Shown: positions 18,332 to 47,366 of the stretch, one piece after another
How positions within the stretch are numbered: the first letter of the stretch is position 1
Layout: every line of letters begins with the position of its first letter
From: an uncultured Actinomycetota bacterium
GTDB lineage: Bacteria > Actinomycetota > Aquicultoria > CAYFWW01
DNA: 64,000 nt
NCBI GenBank assembly: GCA_964346985.1
Contig: CAYFWW010000005.1
Span: forward strand, 17,206-81,205
Reading direction: 5' to 3'
Translations under genes and position numbers: made by a program
The notes under the pieces: model-generated
Told to the model about the DNA's origin: nothing
Seen by the model: only the letters and a program-made list of their open reading frames with translations
Database searches by the model: none

Positions 18332-18501
18332 GTTTATTATTTAATCTTGAAATTATAGTTAATTAATAATATAGCAGAAAAGATGTAAAGATAGACAATC
18401 TGGAAAGATAAACTTTTTTAGAAAATTATTAGCAGTGATTGATTAAAGGAATCTATTAGCTTATTATTATTTAAAATCTCTAAATGTTAAGGAGGCAGAT
18501 T

Positions 18502-21153: not shown

Positions 21154-21366
21154 CTCCCATAGTGATCTTTTGGCTATAATAACATAACTAAATATCCTAA
21201 GACAATTTCGTTAATCATAAGTCAATATTATTTATTAATAGACTAATAATATGAAGTAACAATTTCCATAATATTATTTATATAATCAGACTCTATTTTA
21301 TAAATTTTTTATTTTTAAATATTATTTAATACTTTTAATAGAATATTAAATGGTAGAATAATTTAT

Positions 21367-22194
21367 ATGCCTGAATTGCCAGAAGTAGAAACCATAAAAA
21401 TAGGTCTCGAAAAGAGAATTGCCGGTAAGACTATCGAGAAAATAAAAATTTACTTTCCCGAGTATATTCGTAGTAATAACCCTGAAGGCTTTTGCCGGAT
21501 TGTGGGTGGAGCCAAGATAAATAGGTTAAGCCGCCAGGGAAAGCTTCTTCTAATTCATCTAGATAATGATTACGTTTTGTTGATTCATCTTAAGATGACC
21601 GGCCAACTCTATATCCCTGGTGCTGAGGATGAAATTGATAAACATGTCCACCTCATCTATCAATTCAAGGAAGGTTTTGAACTTTGGCATCGTGATGTCA
21701 GAAAATTTGGTTATGTTAGATTATTGCCAGAAAAACAATTAAAGCTTGATAAAACTATCAAAAATTTAGGGCCTGACCCGTTTAATCAAAAGTTAAGTGT
21801 CAGCAAGTTTAAGAATATATTGAACAAGCACAGTTCAAAAAAGATTAAAGCCTTATTGCTGGACCAGCACGATATTGCTGGAATAGGCAATATATACGCT
21901 GATGAAATTCTATTTATTGCTGGGATAAAACCGGGCCGCTTAGCTGGTGATTTAAACCAGTACGAAATTAAAAAGCTTCTAAAATCAATTGAAGGAATCT
22001 TGAACCTGGCAATTGAATCAATGGGGACGACCATCCGTGATTTTATCGGAGCTGATGGTTCTGCCGGAAATTTTTCACAAAAATTAAAGGTATATAGGCG
22101 GAATGGCCAGGATTGTTATTGCTGCTCGACTAAGATTCTGAAGTCCAAAATTTCAGGAAGAAGTACTCATTATTGTCCTGAGTGCCAGAGGTAG
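21367..22194 (+). CDS. mutM: Formamidopyrimidine-DNA glycosylase
   Basis: N-terminal MPELPEVE with catalytic Pro2/Glu3. H2TH region. C-terminal zinc finger CYCCS…CPECQ. Confidence 0.9.
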   Translation: MPELPEVETIKIGLEKRIAGKTIEKIKIYFPEYIRSNNPEGFCRIVGGAKINRLSRQGKLLLIHLDNDYVLLIHLKMTGQLYIPGAEDEIDKHVHLIYQFKEGFELWHRDVRKFGYVRLLPEKQLKLDKTIKNLGPDPFNQKLSVSKFKNILNKHSSKKIKALLLDQHDIAGIGNIYADEILFIAGIKPGRLAGDLNQYEIKKLLKSIEGILNLAIESMGTTIRDFIGADGSAGNFSQKLKVYRRNGQDCYCCSTKILKSKISGRSTHYCPECQR

Positions 22195-22197
22195 AAA

Positions 22198-22953
22198 CTA
22201 TTCTATAGCTAATTCATCCATTACTTGTTCGGAGATGTCAAAATTAGAATAGACTTCCTGTACGTCATCACTATCTTCTAGGGCATCGACCAATTTTAAA
22301 ACTTTGCGTGCTTCATCTTTATTTAAATTTATAGTATTTTGAGGAAACATGGTCACTTCCGCTGTTAACGGAGTTATGCCAGCTTTTTTTATGGCTTGGT
22401 TTACTTGTGTGAAATCCTTTGGATCAGTAATTATTTCCCAGTTACTGTTTTCTGAGCGAAGGTCTTCAGCCCCGGCTTCTAAGATTATCTCTAGTAATTT
22501 ATCTTCATCTGATTCATCTTCTTTACTGATTAGAATATAACCTGACTTTTTAAATAAATAACTTACACAACCATCTGTTCCGATTTTCCCTCCGTATTTA
22601 TCGAAAATATGACGTATTTCAGCAGTTGTCCTGTTCCTATTGTCAGTCATGATATCTACCATTAAAGCAACTCCGTTTGGACCATAACCTTCATAGAGCA
22701 ACTTTTCATAATGTACGCCTTCGATATCTCCGGTACCACGCTTAACGGCTATATCGATTTTATCATTGGACATGTTATATGATTTTGCTTTCTCTATAGC
22801 ATTTGCCAGAGCAGCATTCGTATCAGGATTACCGCCACCTTCTTTAGCGGCAACAGTAATATAGCGGCTTAATTTGCTAAATATTTTGCCTCTTTTAGCA
22901 TCTTCTTTTGATTTTTTATGTTTAATCGATGACCATTTTGAATGACCTGACAT
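22198..22953 (-). CDS. yebC: YebC/PmpR family DNA-binding transcriptional regulator
   Basis: MSGHSKWSSIKHKK…GGGNPDTNAALANAIEKAK. Highly conserved YebC family N-terminus. Confidence 0.9.
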   Translation of the reverse strand: MSGHSKWSSIKHKKSKEDAKRGKIFSKLSRYITVAAKEGGGNPDTNAALANAIEKAKSYNMSNDKIDIAVKRGTGDIEGVHYEKLLYEGYGPNGVALMVDIMTDNRNRTTAEIRHIFDKYGGKIGTDGCVSYLFKKSGYILISKEDESDEDKLLEIILEAGAEDLRSENSNWEIITDPKDFTQVNQAIKKAGITPLTAEVTMFPQNTINLNKDEARKVLKLVDALEDSDDVQEVYSNFDISEQVMDELAIE

Positions 22954-22954
22954 C

Positions 22955-23545
22955 TTATCCTCCGTTTACCATCTTAATAAAATATTGATGTATCCGGCCA
23001 TCATGTGTTAATTCGGGATGAAAAGCCGAAACAAGCAAATGGCCTTCCCTGGCCATTACTGCCACATCTTGAAAATACGATAATATTTTAACATTTTTAT
23101 TTGCTGACTCAATCCAGGGAGCTCTGATGAATACACCGCGGAATAGTGGGGGGGTAATATTCTGAATAGACAGATTAGCTTCAAAACTCTCTCGCTGCCT
23201 GCCAAAAGCGTTTCTCCTGGCTTCTATATTCATCAGGTTTAATAGTGGCTGGTCACCTTCGGTAATTTTTTTAGCTATTATTATTAATCCTGCGCATGTT
23301 CCATAAATTGGTTTTTTTTGTTCAGAAAATTTTTTAATGGGTTCGATAAAAGAATATTTAACTAATAATTTGCCAATAGTAGTGCTTTCTCCACCAGGTA
23401 TAATCAATCCATCAATAAGGCTTAATTGAGAGGGGGCCTTAATTTTTACTGCTTTTATTCCGATTTCATTTAGAATATGAATATGTTCCCTAACAGCTCC
23501 CTGAAGGTCAAGAACTCCAATAATAATATCGTTTTTATTTTTCAT
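22955..23545 (-). CDS. pdxT: Pyridoxal 5'-phosphate synthase glutaminase subunit PdxT
   Basis: Class I glutamine amidotransferase. IGVLDLQGAV… and the catalytic CAG are typical of PdxT. Downstream of pdxS. Confidence 0.9.
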   Translation of the reverse strand: MKNKNDIIIGVLDLQGAVREHIHILNEIGIKAVKIKAPSQLSLIDGLIIPGGESTTIGKLLVKYSFIEPIKKFSEQKKPIYGTCAGLIIIAKKITEGDQPLLNLMNIEARRNAFGRQRESFEANLSIQNITPPLFRGVFIRAPWIESANKNVKILSYFQDVAVMAREGHLLVSAFHPELTHDGRIHQYFIKMVNGG

Positions 23546-23665
23546 GAGGATATTTTAACATCAAAACCAGTTGGAAATAGACTGTAGAGATTAGTCAATA
23601 TTATTAACTCTAATATTTTACTATAATAAATTAAGGCAGCGAAAGAGTCAGTACTTTATTTATTA

Positions 23666-24553
23666 TTACCAACCTCTAAACTGAATCAGGTTCTCTTCGC
23701 CGATTTTGTCGATTTCAAGACCAGTCATTGCTTCGCCCAAACCTTTACTAACTCGGGCGACGACTTCGGGGTCCTGGAAATGGGTAGTTGCTTCAACTAT
23801 AGCACTTGCCATTTTCCGGGGATTTTCTGATTTAAAGATTCCACTTCCAACAAATATTCCTTCAGCACCAAGCTGCATCATCAAAGATGCGTCAGCCGGG
23901 GAAGCAATACCGCCGGCCGAGAAATTAACAACAGGCAATTTTTTCAATTCAGTGACTTCCTTAACCTGAGCAAGAGGGGCCTTAAGATTTTTTGCAGCTG
24001 TAGCCAGTTCATCTTTCCGAAGAACTGTTAGCTCTTTAATCTCTTTCATAATTGTTCTCATATGACGTACCGCTTCAACTACATTACCGGTCCCAGCTTC
24101 ACCCTTAGTTCTGATCATAGCAGCTCCTTCGGCAATGCGCCTGAGTGCTTCGCCTAGATTTGTTGCTCCACAGACAAATGGGATTTTAAACTTAGTCTTA
24201 TCAATATGATTGTTTTCATCAGCAGGTGTTAAGACTTCGCTTTCGTCTATGTAATCTATTCCAAGAGATTCTAATACCTGGGCTTCAGCAAAATGTCCTA
24301 TTCTAGTTTTGGCCATAACCGGGATGGATACAGAATTCATAATCTCTTCGATAATTCTGGGATCGGCCATACGTGCAACTCCACCTTGGGCCCGGATATC
24401 AGCAGGTACTCTTTCTAGGGCCATTACCGCAACAGCTCCGGATTCTTCAGCGATTTTTGCTTGTTCAGGCGTGGTAACATCCATTATGACTCCGCCTTTA
24501 AGCATTTCTGCTAATCCTCTTTTTACTTTTTCAGTTCCTTCTTCCTTGATCAT
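23666..24553 (-). CDS. pdxS: Pyridoxal 5'-phosphate synthase lyase subunit PdxS
   Basis: 295 aa (beta/alpha)8 protein, …GGVIMDV…[13 protein letters not shown]… GGAGATG ribosome-binding site. Confidence 0.95.
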
Positions 24554-24960
24554 TACTATTACTTCATCTCCTGTTTATTAATGAAGAATAAATAGAATAT
24601 TACTAAATACTATTATAGCAGGCAACATCTTTAACTACTAACCTGGCAATGCTCAATAAATAGTTAAAATATTGGCCTTTATTATTGAAAATTTCTTTTA
24701 TTACGGGGCTAAGCACATTTATAAAAGTTTATTTTTGTTTCTAAAAGAGGCTTAAAAATCTTTAAAAATTTGAATTGCATAATTTTTATATTAAAATAGC
24801 TTAATCAGTCAGTTGGTTTGATGGTTAAGTTTTATACTCTTTAAACAGGGCATTATAAACAGGGCTGCTGACAGAGAAACCGGCTTTAAATATCTGATCT
24901 TTCTTCTTTTTACAAAATTAGATATATTTGCTATTAGAAAAAAGATTTGCTATCCTAATA

Positions 24961-24980
24961 AAAACATATGTTCGATATAG
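24961..24980 (+). promoter_or_regulatory. LexA(Cheo)-like operator-type motif immediately upstream of ruvC
   Basis: AAAACATATGTTCGATATAG. Matches the Gram-positive SOS box CGAAC-N4-GTTCG in 12 of 14 positions, with the right half perfect. Ends 7 nt before the ruvC ATG. An almost identical 19-mer occurs at 27958-27977. Confidence 0.35.
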
Positions 24981-24986
24981 AAAAAA

Positions 24987-25481
24987 ATGATTATTCTAGG
25001 AATTGATCCAGGGACAGTAAGAATAGGATACGGAATAATTGATGACGCCAGAAATGCATTTGCATTAAAGGACTATGGTTGTCTCACTCTTTCAAAAATT
25101 TCAACTTCTTCGCTAAGGCTTAAGAAGATATACCAGGAAATAGGCGCAATAATTGACGAGCATAAACCTGATGTCCTGGCCATAGAAGAACTTTTTTTCA
25201 GCTCGAATGTCAAAACAGCTTTATCCGTAGGCCAAGCAAGAGGGGTAATTATACTGGCTGCAGCCGATAAAAAAATTCCTACCTTTGAATATACTCCTCT
25301 TCAAGTAAAACAGGCAGTTACAGGTTACGGAAAGGCAGACAAAGAACAGATTCAATTAATGGTAAAATCTTTACTTAAGATGAAAGATATTCCTAAACCT
25401 GATGATGCAGCAGATGGGCTGGCTTTGGCAATCTGCCATGCTAACTCAAGAAAATTCTCAGAAAAAGTAGGGCAGATATAA
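24987..25481 (+). CDS. ruvC: Holliday junction resolvase RuvC
   Basis: MIILGIDPGTVRIGYG… RNase-H-fold resolvase. First gene of ruvCAB. Confidence 0.9.
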   Translation: MIILGIDPGTVRIGYGIIDDARNAFALKDYGCLTLSKISTSSLRLKKIYQEIGAIIDEHKPDVLAIEELFFSSNVKTALSVGQARGVIILAAADKKIPTFEYTPLQVKQAVTGYGKADKEQIQLMVKSLLKMKDIPKPDDAADGLALAICHANSRKFSEKVGQI

Positions 25482-26074
25482 TGATTGGTTATCTCTGTGG
25501 AAAAATTGTTCAAAAAGACGAATCCCGAATTATTCTTGATGTTGGTGGTGTGGGTTATCTTGTTTATCTTTCTTCAAATTCGCTTGCTGCCCTACCCCAA
25601 AATGGCCAGGAAGCAAAAATATTCACCTTTTTACAATTAAGAGATGACTCCATGCAGATGTTTGGTTTTGTAACAATTGATGAAAAAGAGATGTTTGAAA
25701 ATTTGATTTCAATTAATAAAGTAGGCCCCAAATTGGCTATAGCTGTTCTCTCTTCTTTTGGTGCCGAAGAGTTAAAGAAAGCTTTTGCTACAGAAGATAT
25801 TGAATTATTATCTTCTATCCCGGGAATTGGAAGGAAAACTGCTCAAAGGTTAGTCTTAGAGCTAAAGGAGAAGATGGCTTTGCCTGATCTTAAACCTATT
25901 GCTGACCAGCCTGATAATGTTGAATCACCGGTAAAACAAATTCGTGAAGCCTTAAAGAGTTTGGGTTATTCAAGCGCTGAAATATCAGCTGCAATGGAAA
26001 ACATAAGTTATGATGCAGATAATTTTGAACAATACTTAAAGGAGACCCTGAAATATTTAGGAAGCCATAATTGA
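25481..26074 (+). CDS. ruvA: Holliday junction branch migration protein RuvA
   Basis: MIGYL.GK… OB-fold N-terminus and HhH motifs ([11 protein letters not shown]). Confidence 0.9.
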
Positions 26075-26075
26075 T

Positions 26076-27095
26076 ATGGAAGAAGAAAGAGTAGTTAGTG
26101 CAGAACTAAAAGTAGAAGATATAGAATTTGACAGCAACTTAAGGCCTCGATGTTTAAGTGAATTTATAGGCCAAAATAAAATAAAGGAACACCTGGAGAT
26201 ATTTATAAAGGCGACTAAGAATAGGAACGAACACCTTGATCATGTCCTTCTATCCGGTCCTCCGGGCCTGGGCAAGACTACTTTAGCCTACATCATAGCC
26301 ACAGAGTTAGGTGTCAACATAAAGGTTACATCCGGGCCTGCATTAGAGAGATCTGGCGATATTGCAGCCATAATTACTAATTTGGAAGAAAGGGATGTTC
26401 TGTTTATTGATGAGATCCACCGCCTCAATCGATATGTTGAAGAGATTCTATATCCAGCGATGGAGGATTATAAGCTAGATATAGTCATCGGCAAGGGTCC
26501 AAGTGCCCGTTCTATTCGGCTGGACGTTCCGTATTTTACTTTAATAGGAGCTACCACCAGGACTGGCTTGATTACTTCCCCTTTGAGAGACAGGTTCGGG
26601 GTGGTAAACCGCCTTGATATATACCCCCCAGAGGATCTGGAAAAAATAATTACCCGCTCAGCTAAGATACTGAATGTCAAAATAAATAAAGAGGGAGCAT
26701 ATGAGATTGCTAAAAGATCAAGAGGAACACCGCGTATTGCCAATAGGCTGCTTAAGAGAGTCAGAGATTATGCTGAAGTAAAAGCTGACGGATTAATAAA
26801 AAAAGATATTGCCAATAAAGCATTGTGTTTTTTTGAAGTTGATAATATTGGCCTGGATAAAATAGACCAAAGAATAATACTGACAATAATTGAAAAATTT
26901 AAAGGTGCCCCCGTGGGCCTAAATACTTTGGCCATGTCAGTCGGTGAAGAAACAGATACGATAGAAGATGTTTATGAACCGTATCTTCTCCAGCTTGGGC
27001 TTTTACAAAGAACACCAAGGGGCAGGATAGCAACAGACCGGGCATATGAGCATTTTGGGCTCCAAAAAGAAAAAACCGAGAAACCTCTTTTTTAA
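26076..27095 (+). CDS. ruvB: Holliday junction branch migration ATPase RuvB
   Basis: AAA+ Walker [10 protein letters not shown], sensor motifs and a winged-helix C-terminus. Confidence 0.95.
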
Positions 27096-27112
27096 TTAAG
27101 AGATAAATTTCT

Positions 27113-27838
27113 TTAAAGTAAGAAACCAACTAAAAAGACGATCATGATTCCGAATACTAGAAATAATGGATTGACAATTTCTCTTTGCCGGTGAGTTTCA
27201 GGTATTAAATCAGAAGCGGCAATATAAAGAAATGATCCAGCTGCAATCGAGAGTAGTATTCCCAAACTTTGTTCTGATATTTCTTTAACCAGGAATAAGG
27301 AGACGATTGCTCCTATTGGAGTAGCAAGGGCAACTAAATACGAAAAGACCATAGCTTTTGTTTTTTTTATTTGGGAGTGAATCATTATTGACATTACAGT
27401 AATGCCTTCTGGAAACTCGTGAAGAATAACTCCCAAAGTTGCTACCAGACCGATTTTTAAGCTTACCTCAAAACCTATACCTATAATTAAGCCGTCAATT
27501 AAAGAATGAAATCCCAGACTGATCAGGGCTAAAGTGCTTAGATTTTCAAGACGGCACTGTTCATCATGACAATGGTGGCCTGTGATAATACTTTCTAGTA
27601 GATAGAAAAAGATAAAACCAATCAGAATTGTCAGTAGGGCATTTTTAAAGAGTTCAATACTTTCAGGAATAATATGAAAAAATGCAGCTGCAAGCAATGC
27701 ACCGGCAGAGAAACTTAACAGAAAGATTGAGTTTTTTTCAGCCCATCTTTTTTTGTATAAAACAAGATACATACCGGAAATTGTTGATAACCCGGCTATA
27801 ATTCCGAAGAAAAATGTATTGATTATTTGGCTTTCCAT
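27113..27838 (-). CDS. ZIP family metal (zinc) transporter
   Basis: Eight TM helices with an HEFPEG signature and a His-rich loop (HHCHDEQC). Confidence 0.85.
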   Translation of the reverse strand: MESQIINTFFFGIIAGLSTISGMYLVLYKKRWAEKNSIFLLSFSAGALLAAAFFHIIPESIELFKNALLTILIGFIFFYLLESIITGHHCHDEQCRLENLSTLALISLGFHSLIDGLIIGIGFEVSLKIGLVATLGVILHEFPEGITVMSIMIHSQIKKTKAMVFSYLVALATPIGAIVSLFLVKEISEQSLGILLSIAAGSFLYIAASDLIPETHRQREIVNPLFLVFGIMIVFLVGFLL

Positions 27839-27957
27839 TTCGATAATAATTTTAACAGAAAATTAACTTACATGACCAAATCCTAAAATTATTTAACTAA
27901 AGTTTAAACTTATTATCAATAATGAAAAAATAACGCCACCATATCCCTATTGAAAAG

Positions 27958-27977
27958 CAAACACATGTTCGCTATAG
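27958..27977 (+). promoter_or_regulatory. Second copy of the LexA(Cheo)-like motif, upstream of the DUF763 gene
   Basis: CAAACACATGTTCGCTATAG. Shares 17 of 19 positions with the ruvC-upstream copy (AAACA[T/C]ATGTTCG[A/C]TATAG). Lies 35 nt before the DUF763 start. Confidence 0.3.
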
Positions 27978-28011
27978 TAGAAAATATATATAAAACCATT
28001 AAAGGATTGTA

Positions 28012-29088
28012 ATGAGAACTGGAACCATAAAATTGCCTCTCCATGGAGGTAGAGCACCGGCCTGGTTATTTCAGCGGATGAAAAACCTGGCTAGAGAAGT
28101 AATTTTAGTTATGGTCAGCGAATTTGGCCCAGGCTATGTTTTAAATAAACTTTCAGACCCGTTTTGGTTTCAAGCTTTCGGTTGTATACTCGGATTTGAT
28201 TGGCATTCTAGCGGTTTAACCACAACTGTATGCGGAGCACTTAAAGAAGGGATAAGAGGCCTTGAAAATGAGACAGGCCTTTTTGTAGCCGGAGGCAAAG
28301 GCAAAGCCTCTCGCCGAACACCGTTGGACATAAAAAATAATGAAGCTTGGTTGAAATGTAACCCTGATAAATTAATTAAAGCAAGTAAAATGATAGCTAA
28401 AGTTGACAATAATGCGCTTCAAGACGGGTATCAGCTATATCATCATACTTTTGTTTCTAATAGAGATGGAGAATTTGCTGTTATTCAGCAGGGGATGAAT
28501 GAACAAAATCGGTATGCTCGCAGATATCATTGGTTGAGTAAAACTATTAAAGATTATGTTAATGAACCCCATGCGGCGATTTGTTTTCAAGCTAAAGGTT
28601 TGGTTCTGGATTTGACTTCAGCTAAAAGCAGGAAAAATCGAGAAGTTTCCAGCCAAATATCTTCTGAAAAACCAGAAAAGTTATGCAAGGAACTGGTCCG
28701 ATTGAAAGATGCTAATCTTCCAAGACGCCATCAAATCCTGTTGAGTGATATTTATCCAGATAATTTAAAAAGCATATTTCTCAAAACCTATGAGTTTAAT
28801 CCGGCTAGCTTTAAAGAACTGCTCGGTATGCCGGGTGTTGGCCCAAAAACAATTAGAGCATTGGCGCTTATCTCTGAATTAGTTTATGGAGCTGAATTAA
28901 GCTACCAAGATCCGGCTCGTTTTAGTTTTGCCCACGGAGGAAAGGATGGAATACCTTATCCGGTTGACCAGGAGAATTATGACCGTTCCATAGATTATTT
29001 AAACAAAGCTCTAAGAAAATCAAAGATAGGCCAAACCGAAAAAGTTAAAGCTTTAAAACGTCTTTATAATTTTTATAAAGATGATTAG
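28012..29088 (+). CDS. DUF763 domain-containing protein
   Basis: The N-terminus MRTGTIKLPLHGGRAPAWLF… is the conserved DUF763 opening. A C-terminal HhH-like segment (LLGMPGVGPKTIRAL) suggests nucleic-acid binding. Confidence 0.7.
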   Translation: MRTGTIKLPLHGGRAPAWLFQRMKNLAREVILVMVSEFGPGYVLNKLSDPFWFQAFGCILGFDWHSSGLTTTVCGALKEGIRGLENETGLFVAGGKGKASRRTPLDIKNNEAWLKCNPDKLIKASKMIAKVDNNALQDGYQLYHHTFVSNRDGEFAVIQQGMNEQNRYARRYHWLSKTIKDYVNEPHAAICFQAKGLVLDLTSAKSRKNREVSSQISSEKPEKLCKELVRLKDANLPRRHQILLSDIYPDNLKSIFLKTYEFNPASFKELLGMPGVGPKTIRALALISELVYGAELSYQDPARFSFAHGGKDGIPYPVDQENYDRSIDYLNKALRKSKIGQTEKVKALKRLYNFYKDD

Positions 29089-29188
29089 TAAAAAATATTA
29101 AAATATTTTTTACATATTTTTTATAATCAGAAAAGATTCGCATAAACAAAAAAATTTTGTTGATATATAATTGATTCTGGTGAATCCA

Positions 29189-29731
29189 ATGAAGATATTA
29201 ATCCATACCTGTTGCGGTCCTTGCCTGACGGTTCCTTTTTTTGAACTGCAAGGAGAAGGTGAGATAACTGCCTATTTTTATAATCCAAATATTCATCCAA
29301 GCCGAGAGTACATGCATAGGCTAGATTCTTTTATAGCATTTTGCCTGGAGGAAAATATAGATTATAAACTAGGTCTATATGAACCTGTAAAATACTTTGA
29401 TCAAGTTGATTATCATCTCCCTGAAGGGGAGAGATGTCAAAATTGTTATCAGCTTAGATTAAATGAGACTGCTAGTTTTGCCAGCAAAAATGGCTTTCAG
29501 GCTATAACTACCACTATGCTTGTAAGCCCCTATCAGGATTTTGAAAAAATTGTTGACCTGGGGAAGAAAATTGCCGCTGACTTTAAATTAAGCTTTATAG
29601 CCCAGGATTTTCGCCAAAATTACCGCCATACAATAGAAGAATCAAAAAAAAGAAACTTATATCGACAGGGTTACTGTGGCTGCATCATCAGTGAATTTGA
29701 GAGATATTACAGGTCTAAGGATCACGTTTAG
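29189..29731 (+). CDS. queH: Epoxyqueuosine reductase QueH (DUF208)
   Basis: MKILIHTCCGPC… conserved Cys cluster plus CQNCY and GYCGC motifs. Located near queA-tgt. Confidence 0.8.
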   Translation: MKILIHTCCGPCLTVPFFELQGEGEITAYFYNPNIHPSREYMHRLDSFIAFCLEENIDYKLGLYEPVKYFDQVDYHLPEGERCQNCYQLRLNETASFASKNGFQAITTTMLVSPYQDFEKIVDLGKKIAADFKLSFIAQDFRQNYRHTIEESKKRNLYRQGYCGCIISEFERYYRSKDHV

Positions 29732-29832
29732 TCATTTCAGGCTTCTTTCTAATTGCTGGTTTAAAAGATGGAATCTTGGATTTTTAGAAAGAGGCATTTT
29801 GAATAGAGAATGGAGACAGTATCTCAACCCCG

Positions 29833-29841
29833 TGTTATAAT
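29833..29841 (+). promoter_or_regulatory. Extended -10 promoter element (TGTTATAAT) upstream of the 29861 gene
   Basis: TGnTATAAT lies 20 nt before a GGAG ribosome-binding site and the ATG. No good -35 element. Confidence 0.35.
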
Positions 29842-29860
29842 TTTTCAATCGGAGTAAATT

Positions 29861-30157
29861 ATGGAAAATTCGATTATTATGCTCGTAACAGTCTTTTTGA
29901 TCAATCTCCCCTTTGGATATTGGCGGAAAGCGACATTGAAATATTCCCCGTCCTGGTTTATCTCAATTCATCTGCCGATTCCTTTGATTATATATTTGAG
30001 GTTTGATCTAGGATTAAACTTGATTATTATTCCTTTGTCATTTACTTCATTTGTTTTGGGCCAATATTTAGGGGGTAGAATAAGAAAGATGATTCCCGCA
30101 GAAAATAATCAAAGTAAATGTCTTGTGATGGACTTATACAGAATAATTACAAGATAG
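29861..30157 (+). CDS. Hypothetical small membrane protein (3 predicted TM segments)
   Basis: 98 aa, hydrophobic, no recognised motif. Has a promoter-like element and a ribosome-binding site. Confidence 0.4.
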   Translation: MENSIIMLVTVFLINLPFGYWRKATLKYSPSWFISIHLPIPLIIYLRFDLGLNLIIIPLSFTSFVLGQYLGGRIRKMIPAENNQSKCLVMDLYRIITR

Positions 30158-30243
30158 GTTCCATTTTTTAAAGATTATTTTTATTTTCTCTAAATAGTTG
30201 AAAGGTAAAATAAAAATAATATATGCTTAATAAGTGATCAGGT

Positions 30244-30474
30244 ATGGGCTTTGAAGAATTTGGAAAGATTTTAATCTTTGTCGGTATTTTAATTGTTATT
30301 AGCGGGGTAATTATTTTTTTTATTGGAAGAAATTTTTCAATTAAAAAACTACCGGGTGATATATTTTATAAAAATGAAAAAATCACCGTCTTTTTTCCGA
30401 TCGTTTCTATGATTGTCATTAGTATTATTCTAACCATTGTTGTTAATGTAATTCTATATTTTATAAGAAAGTAA
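30244..30474 (+). CDS. DUF2905 family small membrane protein
   Basis: 76 aa with two TM helices and a central KKLPGDIFYKNE motif. Its position immediately upstream of queA is typical for DUF2905. Confidence 0.6.
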   Translation: MGFEEFGKILIFVGILIVISGVIIFFIGRNFSIKKLPGDIFYKNEKITVFFPIVSMIVISIILTIVVNVILYFIRK

Positions 30475-31503
30475 ATGAAAACCTCTCTTTTTGATTATAA
30501 TCTCCCTGAAGATTTAATTGCTCAGAAGCCAATTGAACCCAGGCACAGCTCTAAATTGATGGTTATTGATAGAAAGACGGGAAAGATTGAACATAAAAAA
30601 TTCCATAATCTTCTTGAAATTCTTGATGAAGGAGATTGTTTGGTGATAAATGAAACTAAGGTTTTTCCAGGAAGGTTGATTGGTTATAAAGATGTTAGCG
30701 GTGGAAAAGTTGAACTGCTTTTGCTAAAAGAAGCCGATAATGATCGCTGGGAAGTTTTATCCAAGCCATCTAAAAAATTGAAGAAAGGTAACCGGATAAC
30801 TTTTAAAAACGGCCAATTGAGAGCGTTTATTGAAGAAGAACTGTCTGACGGAAAGAAGATTGTAAGTTTTTCTGTAACCGGGAAAGAATTTTGGCAATAC
30901 TTAAAGAAAATTGGCAAAATCCCACTTCCGCCTTATATAAAGAATAACAATATAAAAAGGCAACGCTATCAGACAGTTTTTGCAAAAGATGAGCATTCAA
31001 TAGCTTCACCTACAGCTGGTTTACATTTTACTGAAGAAATGTTGGATGACCTAATGAAAGAGGGAATTAATATATGCCCGGTCACACTTGATATTGGAAT
31101 TGATACTTTTTTACCTGTTAGAGAAGAAAATGTTGAGGATCATAAGATTCACTCCGAAAGGTATCGGCTTTCAAAAGAGGCAGCTAGGATTATTAATGAT
31201 ACGAAAAAGATGAATAAAAGGGTAGTTGCAGTTGGTACGACAAGCACACGCTTACTAGAGACAGTGGCTAAAGAAGATGGAACGGTGGCTCCTGGTACTG
31301 GATTAACTAGCTTGTTTATATTTCCAGGTTATAAATATAAGACTGTAGATATGCTACTGACAAATTTTCATCTGCCAAAATCAAGCTTGATTATGATGGT
31401 TTCTGCATTTGCCGGATTAGAGTTAATAAGAAAGGCTTACATTAAGGCAATTAAGGAAAGATATTATTTTTATAGTTTTGGGGATGCTATGTTGATAATT
31501 TAA
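30475..31503 (+). CDS. queA: S-adenosylmethionine:tRNA ribosyltransferase-isomerase
   Basis: MKTSLFDYNLPEDLIAQKPIEPR… canonical QueA N-terminus. 342 aa. Confidence 0.95.
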   Translation: MKTSLFDYNLPEDLIAQKPIEPRHSSKLMVIDRKTGKIEHKKFHNLLEILDEGDCLVINETKVFPGRLIGYKDVSGGKVELLLLKEADNDRWEVLSKPSKKLKKGNRITFKNGQLRAFIEEELSDGKKIVSFSVTGKEFWQYLKKIGKIPLPPYIKNNNIKRQRYQTVFAKDEHSIASPTAGLHFTEEMLDDLMKEGINICPVTLDIGIDTFLPVREENVEDHKIHSERYRLSKEAARIINDTKKMNKRVVAVGTTSTRLLETVAKEDGTVAPGTGLTSLFIFPGYKYKTVDMLLTNFHLPKSSLIMMVSAFAGLELIRKAYIKAIKERYYFYSFGDAMLII

Positions 31504-31529
31504 CAATATTTAGAGGAAATTCTTTTCAG

Positions 31530-32639
31530 ATGAGCTTTCAATTCAGAATTATAAAAAAAGACAAGAATACCAAGGCCCGTTTGGGAATAATAAAAACTGC
31601 TCATGGGGAGATTAATACCCCGGTTTTTATGCCTGTTGGCACCAGAGCAGCAGTTAAGACATTATCAGCCGGGGACCTAAAAGAGATTGGGGTACAAGTA
31701 ATTCTCAGTAATGCATACCACCTTTTTCTGCGTCCAGGAGCAGATTTAATAAAGGAAGCCGGGGGCTTGCATCAATTTATGAACTGGGGAAAACCTATCT
31801 TGACAGATAGCGGAGGATTTCAAATTTTCAGCTTGGACAATTCAGCTAAGATTACTGACGAGGGAGTGTATTTCAAATCTATATATGATGGTAGCCAACA
31901 TCTGTTTACACCGAGGATAGCAATAGAAATTCAGCAAAAGATTGGAGCTGATATTATTATGGTCCTAGACCAGTGTGTTGGCTATCCGGAAAACAAGGAG
32001 AAGATAGAGTCCTCTATGCAAAGAACTCTTCGCTGGAGTGAAGAATGCCTAAGTTACAAATCTGAAAATAGTCAGGCTCTTTTTGGAATAATTCAGGGTG
32101 GGATCTATCCTGACCTAAGGATAAGAAGCGCTATAGAAACAGTCAAGATGGATTTTCCCGGGATTGCTATTGGTGGTTTTAGCGTTGGGGAACCGCTGGA
32201 TAAGATGTTTGAAGTAATTAAAGAATTCATCGGTATAATTCCTGAAGATAGGCCGAGATATCTTATGGGTGTTGGTGATCCCTTGAGTATGGTCGAGGCA
32301 ATTATTAATGGTATAGACATGTTCGATTGTGTTTTGCCTACCAGGTTAGCTCGAAACGGAGCCGTAATGACCTGGCATGGAAGAATTAATATAAAAAATT
32401 CAGCCTATAAAGATGATTTTTCATTATTAGACGGTCAATGCGGGTGTTCTGTTTGTAAAACATACTCTAAAGCTTATATCCGCCATCTATATTTAAATAA
32501 CGAGATTTTAGCTCACCGCCTCCTGACCTATCATAATCTTTATTTTATAATAAATATAATAAGAAATGTTAGGAAAGCTTTAAATGAAGGAAATTTGGAG
32601 GATTACTGGAAAGATATTAGAGAAAAAATGTTAAATTAG
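31530..32639 (+). CDS. tgt: Queuine tRNA-ribosyltransferase
   Basis: …ARLGIIKTAHGEINTPVFMPVGT… and a C-terminal zinc site CGCSVCKTYSKAYIRHL. Confidence 0.95.
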   Translation: MSFQFRIIKKDKNTKARLGIIKTAHGEINTPVFMPVGTRAAVKTLSAGDLKEIGVQVILSNAYHLFLRPGADLIKEAGGLHQFMNWGKPILTDSGGFQIFSLDNSAKITDEGVYFKSIYDGSQHLFTPRIAIEIQQKIGADIIMVLDQCVGYPENKEKIESSMQRTLRWSEECLSYKSENSQALFGIIQGGIYPDLRIRSAIETVKMDFPGIAIGGFSVGEPLDKMFEVIKEFIGIIPEDRPRYLMGVGDPLSMVEAIINGIDMFDCVLPTRLARNGAVMTWHGRINIKNSAYKDDFSLLDGQCGCSVCKTYSKAYIRHLYLNNEILAHRLLTYHNLYFIINIIRNVRKALNEGNLEDYWKDIREKMLN

Positions 32640-37955: not shown

Positions 37956-40640
37956 ATGGAGATTAAATTAGAGACAATCTGGGAATATAATGAATACGAC
38001 CATAAGCTCCGGGATGAGCTGTCCAAGCGTCTCGGAGTTTCTTCTTATTTAGCTCAAATATTAAATAATAGGAAGGTAATAGATTATGAATCGGCTTGCA
38101 GCTTTATCAACCCCACTCTTAATAATCTTGAAGACCCATATCTGATTCCTGGAATTGATACCGCAGTTTCCAGGATATATCAGGCAATTAAAAGAAAAGA
38201 AGGAATTTTAATCTATGGTGACTATGATGTTGATGGAATTACTTCTGCGGTTATGCTTGATGATTATCTTCAGCAGAGAGGATGCTTAGTTGATATTTAT
38301 ATACCTTCGCGAGCCGAAGGTTATGGGTTAAACAAGGATACATTAAAAAAATTAGCCGGTAAAGACTTTTCACTTATAATAACTGTCGACTGTGGCACAA
38401 ATAATTATGACGAAATTGATTATGCCAAAAAAATTGGTTTCGATGTTATAGTTACCGACCACCATAATCCCGGGGTAAAAATTCCTAAAGCTATTTCAAT
38501 AGTCAATCCAAAGTTAGGCCAAGAAGAAAATGGCATGAGTGTCCTTTCCGGAGCCGGTGTTGTATTTAAGCTCATCCAGTCTTTGGAAGATGGGAAAATT
38601 CCAGTCCAGTACTTGGACCTAGTCACCTTGGGCACTATTGCTGATGTTGTTCCAATAATAGGTGAGAATAGAAATATCATTGCCGAAGGAGTCAAGCAAT
38701 TTTGTAATACAAAAAGGCCCGGGCTGCAAGCGTTGATTGATGTTTCTGGCTTTAGGGATAAGACAATTCAGGTTGGGCAAATTGCATATGGGCTAGCCCC
38801 CAGGCTTAATGCCAGTGGTAGAATTGATGAGCCATTAGATTCAATAAAACTTCTTAAAGCTATGAATATGAAGGAAGCAATGCCTTTGGCTAAAAGTCTC
38901 GATAAGAAGAACAGAGCTAGGCAAAAACAACAAGAACAGACTTTAGATGAAGCTTTATCAAAGATTAAGCGCGAAATAAACCTTCAGGAAGAAAAAGCTA
39001 TTTTACTGTATGAAGAAGATTGGAATCCTGGCATTATCGGAATTGTTGCCAGTAAACTTGTGGCCAAATTTTACCGTCCGGTAATCCTTTTTACAAAAAA
39101 AGGTATGCTAGCATCAGGTTCAGGAAGAAGTATTGATTCATTTCATTTGCTTGATGCCTTGCAAGATTTAGGAGATTTACTGGAGAATTTCGGTGGCCAT
39201 AAACTAGCTGCTGGATTATCTTTACCATTACAAGGTTTTAGGAATTTTAAGGACAGTTTTTTAAAAATTGCCAATAAGAGAATTTCAGATGACGATCTTA
39301 AACCAAGATTGAATATTGATTTGATTCTTGACCAGTCTGAAGTAACTGAAGACCTTGCTCGAGAAATTAATCTTCTGGCCCCATTTGGAAATGAAAACCC
39401 AAGTCCGGTAATAGTTGTTAAGAATGCCGGTTATCAATCGATAAAAACTTTGAGTAACGGCAAGCATCTCAAGTTTGATTTTCCCACCTTAAACTCTAAT
39501 TTTGAGGTAATTGGATTTAATTATGGTCTATATTTGAATGAATTAAAATCCAGGCAAGATAACCTAAATATAGCCTTCAAAATTGAGAAGAATTATTTTA
39601 AAAGAATTGAAAAATACCAGTTAAAATTGATAGATTTAAAATTTGAGCCAAAATGTAAAGAGACAGCAAGTTTCATAAATAATTTATACAGCCGAGCTAA
39701 AGAGTTTAAAATTGAAACAAGATATTTAAAATATTCTGATTGCTTAAGTTTTAAAAATAAAGAAGACAGTACAAGCTCCGACAATCTAAACTCAGATTCG
39801 AAGAAAAGTGATCTTAGTATCCCCAGGAATATCCGCCTTTTTGATAAACGAAATATAAAATCTAAGAATAATTATTTGAAAGTATCAATAAAAAGAGGCG
39901 GAAAATCTTTAATATTATCAAACAAGCCTGATAAATGTGTAGAACTGGCAAATTTTTTAAGAAAAGAGATTATTTATAAAGAAAACGAGATTGCTTTCTA
40001 TCACAGTGGTTTAAATAAGGCAGATCGCATACAAATATGGCAATTGTTTCGGGATTCAAAAATAGACACTCTTATCTCGACTTATTCATTTATGGAGAAT
40101 ATAAGTATTTTGGATATAAGGAGTTTATATCTATATGATTTACCATTTAATTATAGTTCATTAAAAAAAGTGACAAGCATAGTCGGGCTGGACAACCAAT
40201 TGACTTATATTCACATTCTATTTGGTAAAGGTGATATATTGGAAAATGACCTTATGCTGGAATCAATTTCACCTTCAAGAAAAAGTTTAGCGATTGTTTA
40301 TAGATCCTTAAGAGAATTGGCAGAAAATAATATTATTTTTCACGGTTCAAGAAGAGAAATTCTTGACCATTGCCAAAAGAATTCAAGGTTTAATTTGTTA
40401 GACAAAACTTTTCAAAATAGCTTATTGATTCTTGAAGAGTCTGGCTTAATCAAATTAGAGGATAATAGGGAAAAAATATGGATTGAATTAAAACCTGAAC
40501 CCGATAAAAAAATTGACTTGAATATTTCTTCTAGATATCTAGAGGGAGAAAAAAAACGAGAAGAGTTTTCAGATTTCAAGAAATGGATATTCAATACTGA
40601 ACAGTCTAAATTATTAGCTGCTTTTTACAGCTCTAAATAG
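37956..40640 (+). CDS. recJ: Single-stranded-DNA-specific exonuclease RecJ with a roughly 300-aa C-terminal extension
   Basis: DHH motifs (ITVDCGT, VTDHHNPG) and a DHHA1 domain (…LENFGGHKLAAG…). The C-terminal third resembles a degenerate helicase-C (RecA-like domain 2) fold: …IAFYHSGLNKADRIQIWQLFRDSKIDTLISTYSFMENISILDIRSLYLYDLP…. Confidence 0.85.
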   Translation: MEIKLETIWEYNEYDHKLRDELSKRLGVSSYLAQILNNRKVIDYESACSFINPTLNNLEDPYLIPGIDTAVSRIYQAIKRKEGILIYGDYDVDGITSAVMLDDYLQQRGCLVDIYIPSRAEGYGLNKDTLKKLAGKDFSLIITVDCGTNNYDEIDYAKKIGFDVIVTDHHNPGVKIPKAISIVNPKLGQEENGMSVLSGAGVVFKLIQSLEDGKIPVQYLDLVTLGTIADVVPIIGENRNIIAEGVKQFCNTKRPGLQALIDVSGFRDKTIQVGQIAYGLAPRLNASGRIDEPLDSIKLLKAMNMKEAMPLAKSLDKKNRARQKQQEQTLDEALSKIKREINLQEEKAILLYEEDWNPGIIGIVASKLVAKFYRPVILFTKKGMLASGSGRSIDSFHLLDALQDLGDLLENFGGHKLAAGLSLPLQGFRNFKDSFLKIANKRISDDDLKPRLNIDLILDQSEVTEDLAREINLLAPFGNENPSPVIVVKNAGYQSIKTLSNGKHLKFDFPTLNSNFEVIGFNYGLYLNELKSRQDNLNIAFKIEKNYFKRIEKYQLKLIDLKFEPKCKETASFINNLYSRAKEFKIETRYLKYSDCLSFKNKEDSTSSDNLNSDSKKSDLSIPRNIRLFDKRNIKSKNNYLKVSIKRGGKSLILSNKPDKCVELANFLRKEIIYKENEIAFYHSGLNKADRIQIWQLFRDSKIDTLISTYSFMENISILDIRSLYLYDLPFNYSSLKKVTSIVGLDNQLTYIHILFGKGDILENDLMLESISPSRKSLAIVYRSLRELAENNIIFHGSRREILDHCQKNSRFNLLDKTFQNSLLILEESGLIKLEDNREKIWIELKPEPDKKIDLNISSRYLEGEKKREEFSDFKKWIFNTEQSKLLAAFYSSK

Positions 40641-40822
40641 TGTTTTCAGATAAGTACAACTTTATATTAATCTGGGAAATATGATTTTTTAAGATTTAGA
40701 AAAATAAGATATTTTGAATTTCTTATGATAACAAATTATGAAAAATAATGAGTTTGAATTAAAAAAACAAAAGAAAAGGATTTTTTTAAATAAAAAATGC
40801 ACTAGGTTGCTATAATTAAGAT

Positions 40823-42994
40823 ATGAAAGCAATTAATAAGATGATTAAAAATATAATTAAATATAATCCTGATGCTAATAAGGATAAAATCAAAGAAGCT
40901 TATTTTTTGGCAAAGAAATTACATTTAAACCAACAAAGAAAATCAGGAGAAGATTTTATTAATCATCCTCTTGAAGTGACCAGGATACTGGTCGATCTTG
41001 GAATGGATACAACCACAATAATTGCTGCTCTTTTACATGATGCAGTCGAGGATACAAATGTATCGCTTACTCAAATCAAGAGGCCTTTTAGTCAGGAAGT
41101 TGCAGATTTGATAGATGGTGTTACAAAGCTGGGTAAAATTGAATTTAAAACTGAAGAAGAACAACAAGCTGAGACATTAAGAAAGATGCTATTAGCAATG
41201 ACTAAAGATGTAAGAGTAATAATTATTAAATTAGCTGACAGAACACACAATATGAGAACTATAAATGCTTTGGAACCAGAAAAGAGAAAACAAAAAGCTC
41301 GAGAGACTCTGGATGTTTATGCTCCGTTAGCTCACCGCTTGGGGATTTACTCCATAAAATGGGAACTGGAGGATTTAAGTTTTGCTGTTCTTGAAAATAA
41401 AAAATATAACCAAATCATGAAGATGGTTGCTGAAAGTCGAAACGCCAGGGAAAAATATATTGAAAAGGTAAAAAAAGCTATTAGCAGCAGATTAAAGGAA
41501 GCAAATGTAAAATTTGAAATTTCGGGAAGGCCAAAACATTTTTACAGTATCTATCAAAAAATGGTTAAACGCGGCAAGGAGTTTAATGAAATCTATGATT
41601 TGATGGCTCTAAGGATTATTGTTGAAAATGTTAGGGATTGTTATGCTGCTCTTGGTATTATACATTCAATTTGGAAACCTATCCCAGGTCGATTTAAAGA
41701 CTATATTGCCATGCCTAAATTTAATCTTTATCAGTCGCTCCATACTACCGTCATCGGGCCAGAGGGAAAACCCTTGGAAATACAGATTAGGTCAACTTTG
41801 ATGCACCGCACGGCTGATTACGGAATTGCAGCTCACTGGCGTTATAAGGAAGGCGTAAAAAATGATATTGAATTTGAAGAAAGATTATCATGGTTGCGCC
41901 AGATGCTTGAATGGCAAAGTGATTTAAAAGATCCAAAAGAGTTTATGGAGGCTCTAAAAATTGACTTATTCGAAGACGAAGTTTTTGTTTTTTCTCCAAA
42001 AGGAGATGTCTATAGCTTGCCCAGTGGCTCAACACCCATTGACTTTGCCTATTCTATCCATACTGATGTAGGACATAGTTGTGTGGGAGCTAAAGTAAAT
42101 GGTCGAATAGTCCCTCTGGAATATGAACTAATAAATGGCGACCAGATTGAGATACTAACTTCGAAATCAAGTTCTGGCCCTAGCCGTGATTGGTTAAATA
42201 TTGTAAAGACGTCGAGGGCTAGAAATAAAATCAGGCAGTACTTTAGTAAAGAGCGAAGAGAAAGCTTGGAACAAGTAGGAAAAGATGAATTATATAAGAT
42301 AATGCGACGAAAAGGATTTATTCTGAAAGCCAGGTCTCAACAAAATGTTCTTAAAGAGATTGCTGCCGGGTTTAACTTTAATTCTGTCGATGATTTATAT
42401 TCTAGTATAGGGGCTGGCAAAACATCTCCGCAACAAGTTGCCACCAAATTGATCAATCTTATGACCCATCCTGATGAAAGAGAAATCGAAGAAGAAGATT
42501 ATGAAGAATATATAGCAAAACAAAAAGAAACTTCGACAACCGGCATTAAAGTAAAAGGTGTAGAAGATGTTTTAGTGAGGCTTGCCAGGTGCTGTAATCC
42601 AGTACCTGGAGATAAGATTGTCGGTTTTATTACTAGAGGTAGAGGTGTCTCTGTCCATAGAAATGAATGTACAAACATCGTAGGGTTAAAAGAAGAGAAA
42701 GACAGGTTTATTGAAGTATCATGGGATAAAAAAGTAGCTAAATCTTTTCCAGTTGAAATAAAAGTTGAATCAATTGACAGAAAAAAATTATTAAGAGATA
42801 TAAGTACAATTATCTCTGATGCCGGAGTTAATATTCTAAATGCCAGCGTAGTAACGAGCAAGGATAAAATTGCTATATTGAGATTTGTATTTGAAATAAG
42901 CGATATGGAACATCTTAAAAGCATATTGAATACAATTAACAATGTTGATACTGTTATTTCAACCTACCGAGTAATGCCCGGCCAAAGAAGTTAA
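40823..42994 (+). CDS. relA: Bifunctional (p)ppGpp synthetase/hydrolase Rel
   Basis: 723 aa. HD hydrolase (HDAVEDT), synthetase domain, TGS and ACT C-terminal domains. An extended -10 (TGcTATAAT) ends 6 nt before the ATG, so the mRNA may be leaderless or the start may be a downstream ATG. Confidence 0.95.
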   Translation: MKAINKMIKNIIKYNPDANKDKIKEAYFLAKKLHLNQQRKSGEDFINHPLEVTRILVDLGMDTTTIIAALLHDAVEDTNVSLTQIKRPFSQEVADLIDGVTKLGKIEFKTEEEQQAETLRKMLLAMTKDVRVIIIKLADRTHNMRTINALEPEKRKQKARETLDVYAPLAHRLGIYSIKWELEDLSFAVLENKKYNQIMKMVAESRNAREKYIEKVKKAISSRLKEANVKFEISGRPKHFYSIYQKMVKRGKEFNEIYDLMALRIIVENVRDCYAALGIIHSIWKPIPGRFKDYIAMPKFNLYQSLHTTVIGPEGKPLEIQIRSTLMHRTADYGIAAHWRYKEGVKNDIEFEERLSWLRQMLEWQSDLKDPKEFMEALKIDLFEDEVFVFSPKGDVYSLPSGSTPIDFAYSIHTDVGHSCVGAKVNGRIVPLEYELINGDQIEILTSKSSSGPSRDWLNIVKTSRARNKIRQYFSKERRESLEQVGKDELYKIMRRKGFILKARSQQNVLKEIAAGFNFNSVDDLYSSIGAGKTSPQQVATKLINLMTHPDEREIEEEDYEEYIAKQKETSTTGIKVKGVEDVLVRLARCCNPVPGDKIVGFITRGRGVSVHRNECTNIVGLKEEKDRFIEVSWDKKVAKSFPVEIKVESIDRKKLLRDISTIISDAGVNILNASVVTSKDKIAILRFVFEISDMEHLKSILNTINNVDTVISTYRVMPGQRS

Positions 42995-47169: not shown

Positions 47170-47347
47170 AAAGCTCTGCCTTGTACGTGAGCATTTGTGA
47201 TTGTGTGAGCCAACACATTCACAAAGGGAACTTAGCTCTATTAGCAGCTTGGATGCCAGATAATGGAACCAAAAAGTTAGTAGGAAAGTACCCACCTGAA
47301 CAAACAGGGTTCAACAATGTGATATGTCCACGGCAAGGCGGGGCTTG
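47170..47347 (+). ncRNA. ssrS: Candidate 6S RNA (SsrS/BsrA-like), about 180 nt
   Basis: 12-bp terminal stem: 47172-47183 AGCTCTGCCTTG pairs with 47334-47345 CAAGGCGGGGCT (two G-U pairs). Further interrupted helices lie inward. Own promoter. Position directly downstream of aspS matches B. subtilis 6S-1 (bsrA, aspS-yrvM intergenic region). The overlapping 69-codon ORF is Cys-rich and has no ribosome-binding site. Confidence 0.45.
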
Positions 47348-47366
47348 ACTCTGAAAGGAGATAAAC

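Follow-up and report, generated by a model that had tools for sequence, protein, structure and literature searches.

The LexA operator of Gram-positive bacteria, the Cheo or DinR box, has the published consensus CGAACRNRYGTTYC, which was given for both Firmicutes and Actinobacteria (PMC2248561). For Clostridioides difficile the operators GGAACAAATGTTTG (lexA), AGAACAAATGTTTG (recA), AGAACATAAGTTTT (ruvC), and GGAACTAATGTTCG (uvrB) have been listed, and surface plasmon resonance confirmed binding of LexA to the core SOS operators, ruvCA among them (PMC4234289). In Streptomyces venezuelae the second lexA box (lexA-2) reads TCGAACGTGTGTTT, and the first base of the ruvC box is at -23 relative to the start codon (PMC9380542). 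The genes ruvC and ruvA belong, with experimental support, to the LexA regulon in both species (PMC4234289; PMC9380542). Here we compare these systems with two near-identical sites in a stretch of 64,000 nucleotides (nt) from an uncultured Actinomycetota bacterium (contig CAYFWW010000005.1, positions 17,206 to 81,205; hereafter the window), one of which lies directly 5' of ruvC and the other directly 5' of a gene encoding a protein of the DUF763 family. We consider it fairly probable that the 14-bp cores of both sites are operators of a LexA of the Cheo/DinR type, which would repress ruvCAB and the DUF763 gene until DNA damage occurs. For ruvC this would be a known type of regulation, while for DUF763 it is a lineage-specific prediction.

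Two sites resembling the Gram-positive LexA box

The sites and the promoter elements associated with them are as follows.

24961-24974, minus strand: putative LexA operator 1, 5' of ruvC; AAAACATATGTTCG on the plus strand, CGAACATATGTTTT on the minus strand
27958-27971, minus strand: putative LexA operator 2, 5' of DUF763; CAAACACATGTTCG on the plus strand, CGAACATGTGTTTG on the minus strand
27893-27906, plus strand: degenerate additional site TTAACTAAAGTTTA in the spacer between the ZIP transporter gene and DUF763
24976-24981, plus strand: TATAGA, candidate -10 element of ruvC, from reading of the sequence
27950-27955, plus strand: TTGAAA, -35 element of the DUF763 promoter, from a promoter scan
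27973-27978, plus strand: TATAGT, -10 element of the DUF763 promoter, from the same scan

Site 1 (AAAACATATGTTCGATATAG) occupies positions 24961-24980, its last base lying 7 nt 5' of the A of the ruvC ATG (24987), and site 2 (CAAACACATGTTCGCTATAG) occupies positions 27958-27977, 35 nt 5' of the DUF763 ATG (28012). Both are intergenic and have the same orientation relative to the gene that follows. The 19-mers that they share, AAACATATGTTCGATATAG (24962-24980) and AAACACATGTTCGCTATAG (27959-27977), are nearly identical, and both sequences were found at the positions, and with the common pattern, that a first-pass annotation of this DNA had reported.

Read on the minus strand, site 1 (CGAACATATGTTTT) and site 2 (CGAACATGTGTTTG) each deviate from CGAACRNRYGTTYC at only one of its 14 positions and keep the R-N-R-Y pattern of its spacer. 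Both also agree with the search motif for clostridial LexA sites, GAAC-N4-GTTT (form from PMC4234289). The first-pass annotation had counted one mismatch per half-site against CGAAC-N4-GTTCG; this does not hold, since the deviations all lie in the left half (two in site 1, one in site 2) and the right half is perfect. The G-to-A “mismatch” that the two sites share is the GTTT half-site read from the opposite strand and is, therefore, an ordinary feature of such operators. With this form and the agreement at 13 positions, the earlier proposal of a Cheo-like LexA site has become stronger than it first appeared, and it provides the best explanation of the two sites.

The sites are also unusual within the window. 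The degenerate 19-mer AAACAYATGTTCGMTATAG has exactly two matches with up to three mismatches permitted, where 0.07 would be expected from shuffled sequences and only 1 out of 100 shuffles reached two. Likewise, CGAAC-N4-GTTT occurs exactly twice as an exact match, against 0.17 expected from first-order Markov simulations, of which 2% contained at least two matches. Both of these matches fall within non-coding DNA, which makes up approximately 8% of the window, and sites 1 and 2 are the top two matches to GAAC-N4-GTTC across all non-coding segments that are 50 nt or longer (3.4 kb in total). An origin of the motif from a mobile element was also considered and set aside; a scan of viral contigs with the 19-mer gave two matches, a number estimated to be close to chance for a collection of this size.

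Four contigs of the same species from other assemblies carry both boxes. The cores are identical in two to four of these contigs, with flanks that are also approximately 97-100% identical; site 1 is identical in all four and site 2 is conserved in strains L001 and L002. The only difference between strains inside either box is a change from ACAT to ACTT in the N4 spacer of site 2 in strain L001. This substitution is confined to the degenerate spacer, which is consistent with an operator. The degenerate site TTAACTAAAGTTTA has an equivalent in strain L001 (12907-12920), which is an exact GAAC-CAAA-GTTT located 52 nt 5' of the main DUF763 box; this site may be a weak additional operator or may have arisen by chance.

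Position of the boxes relative to the promoters

In both cases the box is separated by the same 1-nt gap from the sequence TATAG, which the first-pass annotation had proposed as a possible part of a -10 element. For DUF763 this interpretation stands: the promoter TTGAAA-17-TATAGT scored 10 out of 12 in the scan, and the 14-bp box (27958-27971) lies wholly within its 17-nt spacer. For ruvC it is plausible only. There, only five A's separate TATAGA from the ATG, and a Shine-Dalgarno sequence is lacking. Since the box ends 13 nt 5' of the start codon, any promoter has to overlap it or be located upstream of it. An alternative promoter would be the extended -10 element TGcTATCCT at 24948-24956, in which case the transcription start would fall inside the box. 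With either promoter, occupation of the box by a protein would stand in the way of RNA polymerase.

Based on this geometry we propose that a LexA dimer bound one base 5' of each TATAG element would cover the promoter spacer and so block RNA polymerase. At DUF763 it would occupy the 17 nt between TTGAAA and TATAGT, and at ruvC it would abut TATAGA, 5 nt from an ATG that has no Shine-Dalgarno sequence. Following DNA damage, self-cleavage of LexA stimulated by RecA would then derepress ruvCAB and DUF763 jointly.

The location of TATAGA 5 nt before the ruvC ATG and the lack of a Shine-Dalgarno sequence suggest that the ruvCAB mRNA is leaderless. Several other genes of the window also lack a Shine-Dalgarno sequence and have a hexamer resembling a -10 element 6-7 nt from the start codon, e.g., relA (TGcTATAAT) and fpg (TGgTAGAAT), and a Shine-Dalgarno-like tetramer was found for only 31 of the 62 genes of the window. 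This suggests that leaderless mRNAs are frequent in this genome, as they are in Actinobacteria. Extended -10-like sequences of the form TGnTAnnnT close to start codons (5-7 nt) were noted for relA (40809-40825), fpg (21351-21369), position 18484, and ruvC (24976-24989).

The spacer between pdxS and ruvC (24554-24986) is unusually long (433 nt). It contains a tandem repeat of AAACAGGGC (24845-24853 and 24859-24867) and, just 5' of the ruvC box, a direct repeat of ATTTGCTAT (24926-24934 and 24945-24953, 19 nt apart), the second copy of which forms part of TGcTATCCT. No open reading frame, Rfam match, or stable fold was detected in this spacer. At the gathering threshold the only Rfam match in the window was a 6S RNA elsewhere, while scans of both spacers by E-value yielded nothing credible, and RNA folding at the sites revealed no unusually stable structure (z-score 0.13). 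A structured RNA, such as a riboswitch or leader, was consequently dropped as an explanation, both Rfam and folding being negative at both regions. Binding sites of Zur, Fur, and PerR (considered for the divergent ZIP transporter), Rex sites, CcpA cre sites, NrdR boxes, and -35/-10 pairs of extracytoplasmic function sigma factors were likewise rejected on sequence.

The ruvCAB genes

The genes downstream of the first box and those between the two boxes were identified as follows.

24987-25481, plus strand: ruvC, 164 amino acids (Pfam RuvC, 2.9e-53; NCBIfam equivalog, 2.4e-65)
25481-26074, plus strand: ruvA, 197 amino acids, its start overlapping the ruvC stop (Pfam RuvA_N, HHH_5, RuvA_C)
26076-27095, plus strand: ruvB, 339 amino acids (Pfam RuvB_N, 1.2e-81; AAA_lid_4; RuvB_C)
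27113-27838, minus strand: ZIP transporter, divergent from DUF763 (Pfam)

The ruvC box starts at -26 from the start codon. For comparison we used the 80 closest metagenomic RuvB loci (59-68% identity), which provided 28 distinct and readable regions upstream of ruvC. A Cheo-type box is located just before ruvC in 6 out of these 28, e.g., TGAACACATGTTCG and TGAACAGGTGTTCG in loci with a high GC content; locus L101 has AAAC-TTCA-GTTC followed by GTAC-ATAT-GTTC before ruvC. In total, the 227.5 kb of these loci contain 13 Cheo-type boxes, 7 of which occur within 250 nt 5' of ruvC. The claim of the first-pass annotation that ruvCAB is an SOS target is, therefore, borne out by the literature as well as by related loci. 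Considering the LexA control of these genes in C. difficile and S. venezuelae and the recurrence of boxes before ruvC, the ruvC site of the window would represent an ordinary case of a recurrent arrangement. Control of ruvCAB by LexA through a Cheo-type box is textbook knowledge for Gram-positive lineages, and the ruvC half of our proposal extends this known pattern.

The DUF763 gene

28012-29088, plus strand: DUF763 gene, 358 amino acids (Pfam DUF763, 2.1e-131), with a conserved segment GVGPKT resembling a helix-hairpin-helix (HhH) motif

DUF763 is a large family of proteins of approximately 360 amino acids; 8000 matches, each approximately 60% identical to the query, were obtained from many phyla. 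The HhH-like segment noted in the first-pass annotation is indeed present and is kept across the family, with G275, G277, and R282 invariant; its match to the Pfam HHH model (residues 263-285, 3.3e-4) is weak, however, and under the curated cut-off. This conserved segment is the only hint that DUF763 may bind DNA. Neither the DUF763 sequence nor the family profile matched any solved structure, no NCBIfam model covers the protein, and its AlphaFold model, which is of moderate quality (pLDDT, the predicted local distance difference test, of 70), has no fold relative and no similarity to repair enzymes. Among the indexed papers DUF763 is mentioned only in a domain census of 2005.

The genomic context of DUF763 was compared in 80 genome loci (from Chloroflexota, Actinomycetota, Bacillota, Thermotogae, Atribacteria, Dehalococcoidia, and others) and in two metagenomic loci, L165 and L168. 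The upstream regions of the family show no enrichment of a palindromic dyad, no neighboring gene is conserved, and no DNA-repair genes occur beside it. The order DUF763-queH-DUF2905-queA-tgt-yajC of the window (28012-32639) is shared with L165 (6001-10469) and does not occur in any of the other 80 loci. DUF763 adjoins queuosine genes in two genomes, and in L165 it overlaps queH by 4 nt; this common order could reflect shared ancestry or a link with queuosine metabolism.

Affiliation of the lineage and other features of the window

A scan of GTDB-representative genomes gave no match above 62% identity. The best relatives of AlaS are 50-56% identical, and the named ones among them are mostly metagenome-assembled genomes of Actinomycetota (Aquicultorales, Geothermincolales, Hakubella), the remainder being single entries of Bacillota, Anaerolineae, Deferribacteres, and Atribacteria. 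The gene order in the window is pdxST-yebC / ruvCAB / queA-tgt-yajC-secDF / recJ-relA-dtd-hisS-aspS / alaS-ruvX-mltG, which is in keeping with a lineage akin to Bacillota and Actinomycetota. We take the location of pdxS-pdxT-yebC (22198-24553) beside ruvCAB to be an actinobacterial pattern, while the succession ruvB...queA-tgt-yajC-secDF...recJ-relA-dtd...hisS-aspS...rarA...alaS-ruvX-mltG-U32 represents an order of the Bacillota type. Since the published LexA consensus covers both phyla (PMC2248561), this type of box is to be expected in this part of the tree. It is probable that this uncultured and poorly sampled lineage, with nearest homologs that are 56-68% identical, retains the ancestral Gram-positive SOS box.

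Two further features of the window were noted. RecJ (37956-40640; 894 amino acids) combines a DHH/DHHA1/RecJ_OB core with a C-terminal region that matches Helicase_C and is weakly RecQ-like, which is an unusual fusion. A 6S RNA (47170-47348; Rfam RF00013, 98.6 bits) is encoded between aspS and a gene for a thioredoxin-like protein.

Discussion

A number of our results weigh against LexA control of both genes. The pattern was defined post hoc, from only two sites, and the statistics are likewise post hoc. The TATAGA sequence of ruvC failed the sigma-70 scan, as it has no -35 element and no T at position 6 of the hexamer. Neither lexA nor recA is present in the window, and the approximately 20 kb of DNA of the same species past the ends of the window (nuo/rnf and type IV pilus genes) contain no box, no lexA, and no recA. 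Relatives other than the contigs of the same species are distant (at most 68% identity for RuvB, 56% for AlaS, and 63% for DUF763), whereas those contigs are too similar, and phylogenetic footprinting is consequently uninformative. For DUF763, the 80 nt 5' of the gene contain no box at any of the 80 genome loci, and L165, which is syntenic and has a DUF763 protein of 63% identity, and L168 lack a promoter-proximal box as well. At five of the 80 loci the 8-base core is matched once, with one mismatch, at a distance of 86-298 nt 5' of the gene, which is close to chance, and a relaxed scan of the loci of Actinomycetota and Bacillota gave at best matches with two to three mismatches at unrelated positions.

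The two sites could alternatively have been produced by chance and a common promoter composition, so that neither would be an operator. The window is indeed AT-rich (35% GC), TATAG-like -10 elements are common, and the post hoc nature of the statistics would favor this explanation. However, the 19-mer is far rarer in shuffled sequences than in the window, only 2% of the simulations produced two exact operator matches even before adjacency to a promoter was demanded for both, and the consensus CGAACRNRYGTTYC was defined independently of these sites. We therefore regard chance as very improbable. It is also rather unlikely that another, lineage-specific regulator recognizes the palindrome AACAYATGTT, the likeness to the LexA box being coincidental or due to a LexA-like paralog (prophage-type, HdiR-like). 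That only two sites are known, that lexA is not in the window, that DUF763 belongs to the SOS genes at no other locus that we examined, and that AACATATGTT within site 1 is a perfect 10-bp palindrome would all suit such a regulator. The agreement with the LexA consensus does, however, reach past the inner palindrome into the flanking CG...GTTY bases. In addition, ruvCAB is among the core targets of LexA in both phyla that come into question as the parent, and other lineages repeatedly carry Cheo-type boxes at this position 5' of ruvC. No further Gram-positive regulator with such a consensus is known to us.

It can further be envisaged that LexA acts through the ruvC site alone and that the DUF763 site is a fortuitous or non-functional match, in an AT-rich promoter of a gene that is not regulated by damage. 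The lack of a promoter-proximal box at all 82 other loci, the absence of DNA-repair neighbors and of fold or sequence similarity to repair enzymes, and the location of DUF763 beside queuosine genes in two genomes, overlapping queH in one of these, would be in line with this. Against CGAAC-N4-GTTCG, however, the DUF763 site fits better than the ruvC site, with one deviation instead of two, it lies exactly in the promoter spacer and at the same distance from TATAG as the ruvC site, and the chance of a second exact CGAAC-N4-GTTT in approximately 5 kb of non-coding DNA is only about 0.01-0.04. An operator at ruvC alone seems improbable to us in view of these properties. Nevertheless, the suggestion of the first-pass annotation that DUF763 is co-regulated as a DNA-damage gene finds no support in the comparison, as the other loci lack a box of this kind close to the promoter and neither fold nor neighborhood points to DNA repair. 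Recruitment of DUF763 to LexA control would be specific to this lineage and is an unproven prediction, which the comparative and structural evidence neither supports nor excludes; we consider it doubtful that DUF763 in this deep-branching lineage is a genuine LexA-repressed and damage-induced protein.

The DUF763 site does offer a lead that can be tested, on a domain of unknown function found in thousands of genomes of bacteria and archaea; it is a weak one, as conservation of the regulation does not extend beyond this species. If DUF763 is indeed induced by DNA damage, this would be the first functional handle on the family and would point to a role in DNA binding or processing in damage tolerance.

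Comparison with known systems

A second route for the induction of repair genes in Actinobacteria is the mycobacterial RecA-NDp promoter, which depends on PafBC and responds to damage independently of RecA. The spacer between ruvC and pdxS contains TGTCAG-N10-TATAAT on the minus strand (24873-24852), which has the geometry and spacing of RecA-NDp. Unlike a promoter of this kind serving ruvC, it is directed at pdxS. As it is the sole match to the RecA-NDp/PafBC motif (TGTCRGTG-N8-TANNNT) and faces away from ruvC, with none 5' of DUF763, this explanation was rejected; matches of this kind have a frequency close to chance in 128 kb of two-strand sequence, and this one has nothing in common with the 19-mer.

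The locus bears more resemblance to the actinobacterial SOS boxes of ruvC, a gene that carries such a box in Mycobacterium tuberculosis, too. In both, the box is found within approximately 30 nt of the ruvC start and pdxS-pdxT-yebC adjoin ruvCAB. In the window, however, pdxS-pdxT-yebC are on the opposite strand and divergent from ruvC, the left half of the box on the plus strand is AAAC and not GAAC, and the genome has a GC content of 35%.

Compared with the Cheo/DinR box CGAACRNRYGTTYC, the sites of the window differ in sharing the extension G-M-TATAG, which we assign to the -10 element and not to the operator, and in that DUF763, one of the two targets, does not figure as an SOS gene in any of the indexed papers that were searched. 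In their other properties they are alike: the sites are 14-bp imperfect palindromes of the form GAAC-N4-GTTY, they retain the purine/pyrimidine pattern of the spacer (ATAT and ATGT on the minus strand), and they are placed in or beside the core promoter, one of them with ruvCAB downstream as in C. difficile and S. venezuelae.

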